From: Escherichia coli
Lineage (GTDB): Bacteria > Pseudomonadota > Gammaproteobacteria > Enterobacterales > Enterobacteriaceae
Assembly: GCF_044324785.1 (NCBI RefSeq)
Contig: NZ_CP172127.1
Length of the DNA stretch: 64,000 nt
Reading direction: 5' to 3' (one strand)
Positions 55,701 to 61,700 of the stretch are shown piece after piece. The stretch's first letter is position 1; every line of letters begins with the position of its first letter. Position numbers: made by a program.

Positions 55701-58700
55701 ACATAAAGCGGATATGCGCGTACTGTAACGGCCCCATCAACGGGGATCGGATTTGAAATCCCGACCCAAGCTATGTACCAAATGCCATGTCTTGGATATA
55801 TGATGATTGCCATTCTAAACAACGCTAAAGGGGGTTGGTGTGAGCAGAAAAGATACTAAAGAATTGCTAACTATCTGCATGGTGTACTTTTCAATTTATT
55901 TTTGTGCATACATGATAGTCCCAGATGAGTTTGAACATGGCAGTATTATTTATTCCATAACATTCTATTTTTTAGAGCTAACACCAATTTTGGCTATCCT
56001 TTTGGCAATACATATTTATTTTTCCTTAAAAAAAGAATCGACTAATTGGGAGAAGGTATGGAGAGACAGAGGATTTCTAACATCACCTAAAGATGATGCA
56101 TATGAGAGTGATTTTTCTGACTTTATAACAAACTACTACTCCAGCGAACAATTCAAAAATAGACTGTCTGATGTTTGGGAAACAGCAATGTATTCCATAG
56201 GGATTATATTATTGATACTTACTGGTATTGCTCAATATGTTTTTAACATTGACTTATCATTAAATCCTGAAAATTTAATATCGCCATTGATTTTTGGTGA
56301 GATATTGATCTTCTCATTCGGAATTTTCTTGAGTGTTGTTCTCTGCTCATTATGCAAACTACTGACTAACAGGTATCCAGGTGAAGCAAGGAGAGCAAGA
56401 AAGGCAAATCCATATTATCTTTTATTTCCTAATGGAGACAGCAGAGATATCTAAGCCATCCATGGCTACCAGTTATTGAGCTTCTTTTTGTGATGCCTGT
56501 GCGACTCTGGTGAGCGATTGTGTGACCGTACTGATCGCTCTGTCATATGCTGTGCTACCTTTTGGCGTATTTGCCAAACGTAACAAGGCATTTCGTATAA
56601 CAGGGCTTTCGTATGCCTTCGCGGCTCCGCCTACGGCACCAGCAGCAGGAACAACAAACGCAGCCGTTTTTAGCATCCCCGCTAATACTGCTGCGTTTAT
56701 GATGCCACCACCAACTAACAATCCATAAAGCTGCTGACCATTTAAGTTTTGAACGTTCGCTTTTGCCGCGTGTCTTGTATCGTTGAGGTATTTAATAACG
56801 CCGTCCAGTTCCTTTCCATGTACGCCTTTAAAGAAAGTTGCTGATTGCTTCCTGTTCCGGTGTAACGCATTAATAAACTTCTCAACACTGATATTTCCAG
56901 ACGGATCAGTCGCCTTATCTACAGCATTCTGAACTATGGCTGCTCGTGCGTTTTGCCTACCATTGTCATCCAGAAGCCTGTAAAGCTGAGAACGTTCTGA
57001 TGGGCTTTGGCTAAAAACGAGTTTTGTTACATCCTCAGGCGTGGCCTTGCCGCTGGCTATTGCCTTTTGAACGCGCGTTCTTCCCATCATGTCATTGAAT
57101 TTAGACCATGAGCGATCAACCCTTGCCATATTAATGGCTTCGTCTGCTCCAAGAGTTTTGGCTACGGCTTTTTTCATATCCGCCGTATATGCCTTGTAGA
57201 TAATATCGCTGGCTTTCTGGAGCGTATCTTTATCAACAGTGTCAGATGACGCCATAAATCGCTTTCGAAGATCGGTTCTGTTTTCCCTCGCCAGACGCAG
57301 GTCATTTGGTCCGCTGGTGATATCGTCTTTAAATTGCTGCAAGACTTTTACCGCGGCTCTATCCTGAGATTTGCCCGGGCGGCTTAACACGGCAATCTGA
57401 TTGTCGATAGCTTTTACCGTGTTTGAGAGATCGACAGGGGTATCCCCCATAGCGTCAATTATGCGGTTATATCGCTTTCCTGCTGCCTCAATGAATTTTT
57501 GTTGCCCTTTAGTCGCAGATTCATAAAGCTGTTTATCAGAAATGCCACCCAGACCATCGCTAAATGTTCTGACTAAATTTTCTCGTGCTTGTTGTTGATT
57601 CAGCCGATTCTTACCGGTTCCAAAAAAAGGAACTCTTTCGCCTAATGTCTGAGCCTGACTCTGCATAAAGGTTTTATCTTTCAGCATGTCACTGGTCATT
57701 AACGGCAGATTTCTTTCCGATGCAAAGTCGACAGCAGCCTTTGCTTCAGGCGACATATCACCACGAACAGCCCTCGAAACCGCACTTGCTGTATTTTCCA
57801 GCCCCTTACCAATACCACCAATGCCAGCAGAAATTACCGTTTGTAACGGATCAATATCTTCTCCACCAGCGAGGCTGGTGGCTCCCTGTAGTGCTAAATC
57901 TGTAGCTGCTGATTTCCCTATGGCCCCCAGCACCGTTCCGGCCCTGCCCGCTGGTGTAAACGCCAGCGCATTAGCCAGAAACGATGCCACGTCTTGCGGC
58001 GATAAACCCGGCTTGTTCAGAGCATAATCACCGGATGGCAAGGAAACGATAGTGTTACCCTTCTCATCCTGCCTTAATTTCGCTCCCATGCTCTGAAGAA
58101 TCTTTTCCTGAGATGCGTCAGAGCCGAAAAGTTGAGACCATCGAGCTTTTAGAGCATCCATGCTGAGTGAGGTTAACTCTGGGGCAAGGTCGACATTTTG
58201 CAGTCTCTCCATCTCTGGAGTCATTCGGCTTTCGCCTGTTATAGCATCGCGCATCGCAACCCCAAGGCTGGCTCCCTGTTCTGCTGAACGCTCAAGCCCC
58301 TCTCTTTGCTGAGTAGCTAACTTTGCATACCCTGACGCAAGAGAATTATCAGATGATGTATGTTGAATATTTTGAGTTGCTGATTGGGCTCGGTCTATTT
58401 CATTCGTTGATGGTAGTGGATAGGCAGCATAAAAAGCCTGCTTAGCCTGCTCTACACTTTCTCCGGCTTGCGGGGCAACGACTTCATTGAAGTATTGCTC
58501 CTGAGCCTGCGCTTTTTGTTCTGGTGCTAACGCCTGATACTGTGGAGAGGCGATAACATCTTTCCATGCTTTAGCCATTAATCACCCCATAGTGAAGAAA
58601 AGTTACTGCTGGCTGCTGGCTGTGATACCTGCTCAGATTGCGGCAATGTCTGCGACGAAGAAGAAGTTCCTCTGTCAACTGCTGAAATAACCCGCAAAGC

Positions 58701-61700
58701 ATCATAAGCTCGACCAGAAGCAGCTTTCAGCGAATTGAACTGGTTTTCCATCTTCCGGCGCTTGGTATCAATGGTTTTTGTGGAGTCGCCAGGCTGAGGG
58801 AAATACATTTGATAATATTTTGACATTTCAGCAGGTACGATAGCTGCCCCTGTTTCCTGACGGAGTATTGCCATTATTGCGTCATTAGCATTAACAACGT
58901 ATTGCTGCTCTGTTGGGCTGAGCGTTAAGTTAGCCAGCGTCCCATTACCCAAAGCATTATTAATGATCGCCACTCGCTGTGGGCTAAGCTGGTCTTTCAG
59001 TGTATCTATTGAATCAAGAGCATCCCTAACCCTGTATGCAAATCCAGCAGCTTTTTTAGCCCCTTCTGGCGACTTTTCCATGATCTTTTGGGCTGTTGGC
59101 AAAGCTATTGGACGAAACCCATCTCCAGATATTGGCTGGTTTAGTTTTCCCTGCTCTTCACTTCCGTCTGTGTAGTATTTTGTGACAGTGCCATCATCGT
59201 TTTCTCTAACACTCATTAATTTTTTGGCGTTTGTATTAATTCCAGCCGCTGCCGCAAATGCCGCCGCCCCCTCTGGATCCTCCTTTAACATTTGAGCGTA
59301 CTGATTGTAATTCTGCATTGCTGCTGTTGGTGCATATGCTGACGTTAACGCATTTGCTCGGCTAATATCCTGCCCTCTCGCCTGAAGTGCTTCGCCAGCC
59401 TGATTGCTGCGGATTGTTTCTGCCAACTTGCCACGCTCAATATCCCGACCTTCCATTTGATCTTTGATATCGAAATACTTCTCATGACCGAGAGAAAACA
59501 GTGCCATACTACCAGCAAGACGCTGGAATCCCTGTGGATCATTAACATGCATTTCGGCAACAGACTCAGGAGAAATTCCCAAGCGACGCATTTCATCTTC
59601 GTTATCTGCTATGAATTTTCCAAATGCCCCAGTTCCGAGCGAAGATGCGATTTGAGCACTAGTCGCAAGATGACCAATAGAATTTCTCTGGTCGTCATCA
59701 ATAAAGCCCATCCCTTTCTGAACGCTTTCAAATTCTTCTGGATACTCAGAAATAAGACTGCGCATTTTGTTTCTGTCTCCAGACTCAAAAGCCCCGGCAT
59801 ATGCTTTCTGAAACTCTGCTTTACGCTGTTGTTGACGTGCCTGCTGATTAATCTCAGCAACGCCTCTTAGCCCCTGTAGCGCCATTAAACCTACGTTTGG
59901 CGGCTGCTGATACTGCACAGGCTGAGGAACGGAAGAACGAGGAGCATTATCATTTTGCGGTGCCATGCTAGGCAGCCCGCCAAGTTGCCATGTCGCCATT
60001 AGAATCCAAGCCCCCCAACAAGACCAATAAGCCCACCACCAATAGCCCCGGCGACATTACCTATACCCGGAACAACGGAACCAAGTTGCGCACCCGCTAA
60101 AGCGCCTGATGCCGCCCCACCAATACCACGCGCAAGACTGGATGGCTGCTGCGCCTGACCTGCACGAATAGCGCCAAGCCCCTGCAAGAGTTGCCCGGTA
60201 TTATTGGCGTAGTTTTGCCCTGCTGTTGCCTGCCCTGATGCCGCATTCATCCCGACATTTAGCAGGTTTCCATAATTTTGCATTTGCCCACTAAGCCAAT
60301 TGTTATAAAGCATGGGCGCAATGGAAGATAACTGGTTACTGGTAGCTGTTGAGCCAAGCCCCCCGGTAGCTTCTGCTGAGACAAGGTTCTGATAACGGGC
60401 CTGATCTGCCTGTGTTTTATATAAACCAGAACCAAAGAAATCATTCGCGGCTTTATTCTGCCCTTCCAGAGTCATCAGTCCTTGTAGTTGTTGTAAAGCA
60501 GGCAATCCGACTTCTGCATACGGCTTGAGATTATTCATCACCGTATTCCACTGCTCGCGCTGCAAATCAATTGCCTGCTGCTGGGCCTTCGCCTGAGCTT
60601 TAGAGGCACCACCATCACCGCCTTTTTCGTATACGGCACGATTGAGATGTTTATGAGCTATATGGGTAATTAACATTCGCTGAATTCCTTATATTGTTGC
60701 CGAGTTAACTGATAAAGCGTTACGCCGACGGGTTTACCACATCTGATATAAGCATCATCAAGGTGACCAACACGGGTAGCGCCAAGCAAACGGATAATTG
60801 CCCGTCCGTATTTCGTGGTGTCAGGAACCATAGTGATGCTGTTAAGGAATGGTGAGTTTTCGAGAAGCCATTTGCAGAATAATCGATGTCCTTGCAGTGC
60901 ATATTCACCACGGAATCCGGGGGCGTACACCGCATGGCATTCAACAACGCTATGCCAGAAGTTACGCACTTCATGAACGCCAGCCAGCACCAATCCTTCG
61001 TAGATGCCGAGATATACCGCATCAGGCTTGATGTAGTACGTGTGCCCCGGCTCAACAATATTTTCGGTATTGCCTGGCTCGTTAAGAAAGGCCTGTAATC
61101 GCACAGGGTTATCAATAAATTTTAGTTCCATGCGATGCCATCCATTTTCACATACAGCCTGCCAGCGCCTTATCTATTAACCCTCGTGCAATTTCATGCA
61201 GAGTTGGCGCTACTCCAATTCCTGATTTTTTACGCTGCTCTTCCTGAATTTTCTTTATCGCTTCCATTTGCTTCTCACTTATCAATACCGGCTTTACTGA
61301 AATAGCCATAACGCCCCCTTAGAACTGTATAAAACAACAGTTATTATAGTTTCACAAATCGCAATATTCATCATAGCAATTGCAAAATATGAAACAAATA
61401 GCACAAAAAAATGCCACCGCTCAGTAGCTGGTGGCATCGTTCTGTGTGTCAGGTTTTGACAGGTTTTTTATGGACTCTAAAAACTATATTTATGGTGTCG
61501 CATTACTCTTCACGGCAGGCGCTTTTCAGTTCTGCCCTTGCTTCTGGCTCCATTGGTAATTTGATTCGCGATCAGCTATGCGGATGGTTTGCTGAACAGG
61601 CATAACAACTTCTCAGAGGCTGTTTTTTGAACTACGAAAATTTCGTAGTGCTCACTTTCAAAAACGTCACGCCCTTGTACACAGGATTTTACGAAAGTCT

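Follow-up and report, generated by a model that had tools for sequence, protein, structure and literature searches.

The stretch analysed here, 64,000 nt of Escherichia coli contig NZ_CP172127.1 (assembly GCF_044324785.1; hereafter, the window), contains part of a chromosomal island in which, by homology, an intact P22-type 14-7-20-16 set of ejection genes is accompanied by a sieA-type gene. Judging from its gene content, the island is a satellite of the phage-inducible chromosomal island (PICI) type and not a prophage; it resembles EcCIMP1, the PICI of E. coli MP1 (Pick, Stadel and Raivio, ISME J 2025, PMC11773190), and is a cassette-swap variant of that published family. We see an even chance that its SOS-switched operon supplies ejection proteins that are co-assembled into the particles of a helper phage and thereby set the entry of the satellite DNA.

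Four coupled genes encode a P22-type ejection set

The cassette and the gene that follows it comprise:

60670..61131, minus strand: gp14 homologue (DUF2824, 'head morphogenesis'), 153 aa; phrog_651, E 3e-66
59999..60676, minus strand: gp7 homologue (DNA ejection), 225 aa; phrog_598, E 1e-69
58578..59999, minus strand: gp20 homologue (periplasmic-tube ejection protein), 473 aa; phrog_917, E 2e-111
56473..58578, minus strand: gp16 homologue (inner-membrane ejection protein, DNA transfer), 701 aa; phrog_770, E 4e-161
55840..56454, plus strand: SieA-like (type-B-like) membrane protein, 204 aa, convergent with gp16

The initial annotation had described four genes of 153, 225, 473 and 701 codons, read in one direction and overlapping by 7, 1 and 1 bp, all of which was borne out at the above coordinates (junctions ATGTTAA, TAATG and TAATG). 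It had further likened them to the gp14-gp7-gp20-gp16 module of P22. Profile searches agreed: each protein matched the expected family of phage ejection proteins and not an unrelated one (PHROG 651, 598, 917 and 770), so the module is not a chance run of open reading frames (ORFs), and BLAST against the P22 proteins, in the P22 order, gave E-values ranging from 9e-8 to 8e-53. The gp14 homologue is 23% identical to P22 gp14 and 81% identical to that of the P22-like phage Kapi1; the gp7 homologue is 56% identical to P22 gp7 and has 76 invariant columns in common with phage gp7 proteins, including a K-GG motif after the leader; the gp20 homologue is 38% identical to P22 gp20 in the N-terminal half; and the gp16 homologue, which has a hydrophobic pair at residues 617-649, is 30% identical to P22 gp16 over 482 aa (E 8e-53). 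On these alignments, the identities between the cassette and P22 fall inside the range seen among bona fide P22-like phages, the gp16 proteins of which are 22-26% identical to one another (PMC10883804). The products are Ala/Gln-rich, as had been noted (gp7-like, G 16%, A 15%, Q 11%; gp20-like, A 13%, Q 8.5%; gp16-like, A 14%, Q 7%), and the 225-aa protein does end in a glycine-zipper tail, ...GIGNVAGAIGGGLIGLVGGLGF.

The cassette proteins of close relatives carry the Pfam domains DUF2824, P22_gp7, Inj_translocase and Phage_P22_gp16; a local Pfam scan returned no match for the gp16 allele of the window. NCBIfam holds no family for the four cassette proteins, orf53 (see below) or the SieA-like protein, sequence searches of the PDB with all four cassette proteins gave no match, and neither the cassette nor the SieA-like protein was matched by PADLOC.

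The annotated P22 genome has the order 26-14-7-20-16, followed by the convergent sieA 23 bp past gene 16. The window reproduces the order and strand of 14-7-20-16, with a convergent gene in the sieA slot that ends 19 bp from the gp16 stop. This order, the convergent slot gene, the tight coupling and the mosaic gp20/gp16 are all features of the P22-like phages (Lederbergvirus: P22, Sf6, HK620, Kapi1 and N7). Unlike these phages, the satellite lacks gene 26 (tail needle) upstream and both the immI region and tailspike gene 9 downstream, as well as capsid and packaging genes. Moreover, its module lies behind the satellite origin (ori) under a predicted LexA-box promoter of its own, whereas the phage module belongs to the late operon, and its gp7, gp20 and gp16 alleles are at most 53-70% identical to those in any of 50,697 phage records.

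The cassette resides on an EcCIMP1-like satellite

Two features upstream of the operon assign the surrounding element:

61894..64000, minus strand: satellite primase/replicase (TOPRIM + DUF927), C-terminal 701 residues of a gene cut by the window end; phrog_1139 DNA primase, E 1e-159
61758..61868, no strand assigned: ori iteron block just 3' of the primase gene, three GTTGGTTCA and three inverted copies with an AT-rich spacer

The 54-codon ORF, iteron block and primase gene that the initial annotation had placed upstream of the cassette are all present. The primase fragment is 100% identical at the amino acid level to the 918-aa primase of a complete copy of the island (L001). GTTGGTTCA occurs 13 times in the 64-kb window, against 0.51 expected, and the position of the iteron block agrees with the published place of the PICI ori, just 3' of the primase-replicase gene (PMC6092414).

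Complete copies, 99.7% identical over window positions 55277-64000, are islands of ~18-20 kb lying between core genes. They start with a tyrosine integrase, an AlpA-type regulator, PM1773, AntA/B, DUF4222, Ash and small ORFs and continue with the primase, ori, orf53, gp14-7-20-16, an envelope-protein gene, a variable region (Abi etc.) and PerC. The complete copies lack capsid, portal, terminase, tail and lysis genes, the first four of which are also missing next to the cassette in the window, and the copies likewise contain no gp4, gp10, gp26, gp9 or coat gene. The earlier observation that capsid, portal, terminase and tail genes are missing next to the cassette hence extends beyond the window; a full virion gene set just past its end, which had been considered, is absent from these near-identical copies. 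PHROG searches with the backbone proteins matched regulators (Ash, AntA, AlpA) and unknowns only. The P4-like satellite genes sid, psu and delta are annotated in neither the complete copies nor EcCIMP1, and both are devoid of the traits of capsid-forming PICIs (cf-PICIs), namely capsid, portal and terminase genes of their own.

Gram-negative PICIs have been defined by int followed by alpA, a unidirectional operon, a primase-replicase with an iteron ori, a size of ~10-20 kb, the lack of phage structural or lysis genes and helper-dependent excision, replication and transfer, and PerC genes have been noted in those of E. coli (Fillol-Salom et al. 2018, PMC6092414). The lack of structural genes holds only loosely in the present island and not in the strict sense, the gp7, gp20 and gp16 homologues being internal virion proteins. 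An 8.2-kb stretch of the island was found at >=80% coverage in 190 of 5,426 complete E. coli genomes, and ~6% of the complete genomes of this species contain the backbone junction.

A cassette swap relative to EcCIMP1

EcCIMP1 excises and circularises solely in the presence of the P22-like phage Kapi1 or upon its induction, requires its own alpA and int, and is transduced by Kapi1 at a low rate; it confers extra superinfection immunity against Kapi1 by an unexplained mechanism, no known defence system having been found in it, and does not affect the Kapi1 titre on induction (PMC11773190). The relevant genes are labelled there as 'DNA transfer/DUF2824-like' packaging candidates, and ejection proteins, SieA and LexA are not mentioned in that paper (PMC11773190).

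The window and EcCIMP1 are 98.8% identical in nucleotide sequence over 4.2 kb (window 59839-64000), with amino acid identities of 99.3% for the primase, 100% for orf53, 97% for gp14 and 99.6% for gp7; PerC, two iteron blocks and the LexA-box promoter are also common to both. From ~55770 to 59838 the two elements are unrelated, and the recombination breakpoint, at ~59839, falls inside the 5' part of gene 20. The gp20 proteins are 48% identical in the N-terminal part only, and the gp16 alleles are unrelated (701 aa in the window versus a 906-aa SLT-containing protein in EcCIMP1). The gene after gp16 is SieA-like in the window and encodes a 232-aa lipoprotein in EcCIMP1, and the insertion site is yicC-dinD in the former and thrW in the latter. 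A shared backbone combined with a different gp20, gp16 and downstream gene thus indicates a cassette swap between the two. Between EcCIMP1 and its helper Kapi1, identity is only 26% for gp20 and 24% for gp16, compared with 83% for gp14.

A SieA-like gene occupies the slot after gp16

The product of the convergent gene is 29% identical to P22 SieA (E 8e-8), and a two-sequence profile aligned with P22 SieA at an hhalign probability of 94.8% (E 5e-8). It contains RYPGEA inside TNRYPGEARRARK, to be compared with the published SieA motif FxRYPxEAxxFNK (PMC10883804), and has 4-5 hydrophobic segments. Its length agrees with that of type B SieA, which has an additional N-terminal transmembrane segment (PMC10883804). 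P22 SieA is likewise a multi-pass protein with an RYPxEA motif, encoded convergently directly after gene 16 (Leavitt et al., mBio 2024, PMC10883804). The window protein, in contrast, is merely 29% identical to it, and its exclusion activity is putative. Moreover, sieA has been reported solely in P22-like prophages (PMC10883804), whereas the gene described here sits on a satellite. The sole diverged relative that we found (50% identity) lies in the sieA slot of a P22-like prophage of Citrobacter freundii, between gene 16 and the arc/ant/tailspike region. The allele of the window is present in 101 of 5,426 E. coli genomes and stands beside a satellite gp16 in the sampled rows. All satellite variants have a gene for a membrane protein, a lipoprotein or a secreted protein directly behind gp16.

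Predicted SOS control of the operon

The region between the origin and the cassette contains:

61413..61428, minus strand: intrinsic-terminator-like hairpin and T-run that separate the ori region from the ejection operon
61325..61348, minus strand: promoter -10 element TATAAT (61343-61348) followed by a predicted LexA (SOS) box, CTGTTGTTTTATACAG (61325-61340), delineated by cross-genus alignment
61148..61309, minus strand: orf53, 53-aa leader gene (54 codons with the stop) heading the post-ori operon

Upstream of orf53, the sequences from E. coli, Citrobacter, Serratia and Klebsiella have in common ...TGAAACTATAAT, directly followed by CTGT-N8-ACAG, which we take to be the core of the LexA box; the Citrobacter rows of the alignment also contain the hairpin and T-run at the same place. 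The pattern CTGT-N8-ACAG or CTG-N10-CAG, with a variable spacer, was found in all 19 ejection-module satellites examined (19/19). It has two occurrences in the 64-kb window, the other one being located 34 bp upstream of a truncated dinD. Since dinD is a classical SOS gene, its recovery by the same pattern provides an internal positive control for the match. A sigma-70 scan did not report the orf53 promoter because of its poor -35 element. That LexA, and with it the SOS response, controls an operon of a Gram-negative PICI is a prediction, for which we found no report in the literature searched. A satellite precedent is operon I of the SaPIs (pathogenicity islands in Staphylococcus aureus), a packaging/morphogenesis operon that, like the operon in the window, is satellite-borne downstream of the replicon and that is LexA-controlled according to the citation of Ubeda et al. 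2007 in PMC6092414.

The leader gene orf53 is 65-100% conserved in the Escherichia, Citrobacter, Serratia and Klebsiella satellites and is always the first gene of the post-ori operon. Its AlphaFold2 model (pLDDT 81.6) has an extended N-terminus and two helices, a fold that might be compatible with a ribbon-helix-helix protein; no significant match was found in Pfam, PHROG or, by Foldseek, in the PDB (E above 3).

The cassette is maintained across genera

To compare satellites between genera, we anchored the contexts on orf53 homologues, which yielded a limited sample of loci. All four Citrobacter loci (4/4) contain orf53, DUF2824, P22_gp7, Inj_translocase and SLT+P22_gp16, and all three Serratia loci (3/3) contain orf53, gp20 and gp16; the four-gene form was also present on two metagenome or read-assembly contigs of unassigned origin. 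On a Salmonella enterica chromosome (CP149359, L035, locus 9001-12752), the satellite has only two of the genes, gp20 and gp16, which share 97% and 98% identity, respectively, with the E. coli alleles; its gp16 is split by a frameshift or sequencing error. Such near-identity implies, as far as sequence can tell, recent transfer between Salmonella and E. coli. Within E. coli, two attachment sites harbour copies of the cassette, and the accompanying replicase is of one of two types (DUF927 or DUF5906). Across the satellites, the minimal form is always gp20 plus gp16. A profile scan of E. coli contigs with the gp20 alignment, a procedure of low sensitivity, retrieved seven loci, six of which are full P22-like prophages and one a satellite.

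Among satellite-borne copies, dN/dS was 0.03-0.11 for all four genes, with dS reaching >1 (simple Nei-Gojobori script, few pairs). Amino acid identity between genera is ~82-84% for gp14, gp20 and gp16 versus 68% for the primase and 35-49% for the small ORFs, so the cassette is better conserved between genera than the satellite backbone. The best matches among the 50,697 phage records were phage N7 for gp16 (67%) and APSE phages for gp20 (53%), and for gp7 the best match was <=70%, over the central 60% of the protein; short nucleotide patches of ~90-96% identity to phages such as Sf6, HF4s and Kapi1 are restricted to the junction of genes 20 and 16 and to a portion of gene 14. By these comparisons, known phages are not a recent source of the cassette alleles.

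The post-orf53 slot is not reserved for ejection genes. In Klebsiella michiganensis (L023-L025, L036-L037), different genes stand behind the orf53 homologue, which in one type encode a 605-aa protein (phrog_7694, with transglycosylase/tape-measure-like segments) and a TerS-like helix-turn-helix protein and in the other are Terminase_2 and DUF2280 genes. This suggests that the slot holds a helper-exploitation module, which appears tailored to the type of helper.

Decayed copies were found as well, including a primase-gp20 deletion, IS3 in gp20, IS66 in gp16 and the Salmonella frameshift. Among the matches listed, strain M160133 has the nearest arrangement, with a different replicase and IS66 in gp16. 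Three candidates changed their status on inspection. UTME-9, suspected of harbouring a P22-like prophage with this gp16 allele, actually carries a satellite with IS3 copies in gp20; the DUF2824 matches in O157:H7, suspected to mark a PICI (O-island 51), belong to a true P22-like prophage stub at argW-intS; and the 'pseudogene' flag on gp16 of L001 in RefSeq is an annotation artefact, the ORF being intact.

A satellite that may supply ejection proteins to its helper

Work on P22 has shown that highly divergent foreign ejection proteins enter P22 virions and function, that gp16 and gp20 must match, with mismatched pairs yielding non-infectious particles and gp7 being interchangeable, and that SieA, an inner-membrane protein, blocks DNA injection, with escape mutations mapping to gp16 and gp20 (PMC10883804). 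The pairing rule fits the observation that the satellites always retain gp20 and gp16 together; they swap the two as a unit with the gene following gene 16. Under the reading that we prefer, DNA damage would lead to LexA cleavage and induction of the helper prophage, switching on the operon headed by orf53. The satellite ejection proteins would then be produced alongside those of the helper and built in trans into helper procapsids, and in particles with satellite DNA the conduit for its delivery would be of the gp20/gp16 type that the satellite encodes. Entry of the satellite would thereby be decoupled from the alleles of the helper, for example by admitting it to lysogens in which a SieA-type protein blocks conduits of the helper type, and the SieA-like protein of the satellite, expressed from its separate convergent gene, would block entry of P22-like phage DNA into the carrier cell. 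A tentative generalization, in which we place clearly less confidence, is that PICIs of this kind act as ejectosome suppliers: matched gp20/gp16, with or without gp14/gp7, would be loaded into podovirus particles made by the helper and carry satellite DNA past SieA-like exclusion, also into lysogens of the helper, and the linked exclusion gene would shut the door behind it.

Several points weigh against the reading that we prefer. Incorporation into virions and a role in transfer are both predictions, as is LexA binding at the orf53 promoter. Ejection proteins load before the DNA and so cannot be sorted to the particles that carry the satellite, and mixed, incompatible gp20/gp16 pairs could harm helper and satellite alike. 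EcCIMP1 is transduced by Kapi1 at a low rate and leaves its titre unchanged (PMC11773190). The integrase and alpA genes of the window copy lie beyond the window end (both are present in the 99.7%-identical copies and in EcCIMP1), approximately 3 of the 10 E. coli copies examined are disrupted by an insertion sequence (IS) element or a deletion, and some of the dN/dS signal may predate residence on the satellite, having accumulated in phage genomes. The sequence does not discriminate between an ordinary virion role in trans and a 'repurposed' module, the latter having been the second option raised in the initial annotation.

An unlikely, though competing, explanation is that the island protects its carrier: the cassette and the envelope protein would together exclude superinfecting phages, with resident gp20/gp16 or the envelope protein jamming incoming P22-like conduits, or mismatched gp20/gp16 would poison the helper progeny. 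Such a function would fit the immunity to Kapi1 that EcCIMP1 confers without a known defence system (PMC11773190), the membrane protein, lipoprotein or secreted protein gene after gp16 in every variant (SieA-like in the window), the non-infectious P22 particles formed with mismatched gp16/gp20 (PMC10883804) and the defence-type cargo in the neighbouring variable region. However, EcCIMP1 does not lower Kapi1 titres on induction (PMC11773190), a promoter repressed by LexA, as predicted, makes it doubtful that uninduced cells express the ejection proteins steadily, and gp14, an assembly-stage factor, is equally conserved. Moreover, SieA alone suffices for exclusion in P22 (PMC10883804), so that exclusion would leave four further genes unexplained. 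We consider it very unlikely that the cassette redirects helper packaging or capsid assembly to satellite DNA, as Pick et al. suggested for EcCIMP1_017-019. The cassette does occupy the post-primase slot that other PICIs use for packaging genes (PMC11773190), TerS genes lie in this slot in the Klebsiella relatives, and the PHROG label of the gp14 family is 'head morphogenesis'; yet the homologues are conduit proteins, P22 mutants lacking 7, 16 or 20 form DNA-filled virion-like particles that fail only in injection (PMC10883804), and neither cassette nor backbone was found to encode a protein resembling TerS, Rpp, Ppi or a scaffold.

The initial annotation had also proposed a prophage remnant captured by a satellite-like replicon. 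The satellite part of this proposal stands, the replicon being a PICI of the EcCIMP1 type; the remnant part does not. An inert, decayed P22-like prophage fragment that accidentally fused to a PICI/P4-like replicon and spreads by hitch-hiking has a counterpart in the true stub of O157:H7, with needle-14-7-20 beside intS, and the IS-disrupted or deleted satellite copies would be expected under it. Against this stand the low dN/dS across genera, the unchanged position of the cassette behind orf53 and its promoter in at least four genera, the exchange of several different intact gp20/gp16 alleles as cassettes and the lack of other P22 genes flanking the cassette. On the evidence from slot, selection and alleles, we reject the remnant explanation for the satellite family, the residual probability being slight.

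Supply of ejection proteins in trans, the reading that we prefer, has partial parallels in other satellites. SaPI cpmAB/terS, P4 sid/psu, the capsid genes of cf-PICIs and rpp of EcCICFT073 are likewise satellite genes that act on virion production by the helper, but they target capsid size, packaging specificity or whole capsids, unlike the conduit proteins encoded in the window. Satellites are known for stealing or remodelling capsids, redirecting packaging and borrowing tails. Our searches of the literature on satellites or PICIs combined with ejection or injection returned no report of satellite-supplied internal ejection proteins, nor the idea of a satellite supplying the DNA-delivery conduit of the virion. 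Already in print are the PICI family, its P22-like helper and the 'DNA transfer/DUF2824-like' genes (PMC11773190). Recognition of the genes as a complete 14-7-20-16 set with a SieA-type gene, their cross-genus conservation and purifying selection, the swapping of gp20, gp16 and exclusion genes and the LexA-box promoter were not found in the literature searched; the convergent SieA-like gene, the LexA box and the published relative with a P22-like helper (PMC11773190) were also absent from the initial annotation.

If PICIs of this kind are indeed ejectosome suppliers, no earlier satellite would have been shown to provide a virion with its DNA-delivery apparatus, and the superinfection immunity of EcCIMP1 would be explained, the SieA-like gene or another gene in the post-gp16 slot being the candidates. 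Were the cassette to work in trans, entry specificity and escape from injection-blocking exclusion would be traits of the satellite and not of the helper, with a bearing on the spread of these islands, and of the defence cargo and virulence regulators of the PerC type that they carry, among E. coli, Salmonella, Citrobacter and Serratia. Specialists will hardly be surprised to find P22-like genes on a satellite whose helper is a P22-like phage; the system is common, and a helper/satellite pair in which it can be tested already exists.

Variable region and island neighbourhood

The remaining features of the island in the window are:

53642..54915, minus strand: IS3-family insertion sequence with two overlapping transposase ORFs (54505-54915 and 53642-54547), in the variable region
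52691..53560, minus strand: ImmA/CapP-like metallopeptidase (53072-53560; PADLOC capP, E 5e-25) and a 125-aa membrane protein
52008..52128, no strand assigned: second iteron block, three plus three inverted GTTGGTTCA, a possible crr-like site, with a matching block in EcCIMP1
51684..51971, minus strand: regulator gene of the PerC family, close to the island's far end; homologous copies have it annotated as PerC

The IS3-family element, which has overlapping orfA/orfB and is presumably IS2-like, lies between the ImmA-like pair and the SieA-like gene and has no counterpart in strain M160133. The homologue of the metallopeptidase is labelled 'ImmA/IrrE family metallo-endopeptidase' in RefSeq. Other copies of the island have an Abi gene, RnlAB or other cargo in the variable slot, which suggests that the region behaves as a defence-gene hotspot. 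The second iteron block, between PerC and a 147-aa ORF, is ~9.7 kb from the ori block, and the two blocks flank the ejection cassette and the variable region, an arrangement reminiscent of ori and crr in satellite P4. A segment of ~40 nt (61621-61661) with the palindrome CTACGAAATTTTCGTAG, located between the ori and the terminator, matches short stretches inside 'hypothetical proteins' of other E. coli genomes and of a Salmonella plasmid. In an Rfam search of window positions 55-64 kb, the sole matches were microRNA noise below threshold, located on the iterons.

The island adjoins gmk, ligB, yicG and the truncated dinD and occupies the yicC-dinD site, not thrW. At its end, dinD is cut to an 89-aa N-terminal ORF (50677-50995), with the SOS box CTGTGTTTATATACAG intact at 50980-50995. 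Well outside the cassette, positions 14000-32000 of the window have a G+C content of 0.41-0.50, compared with ~0.53-0.57 in most of the flanking sequence.

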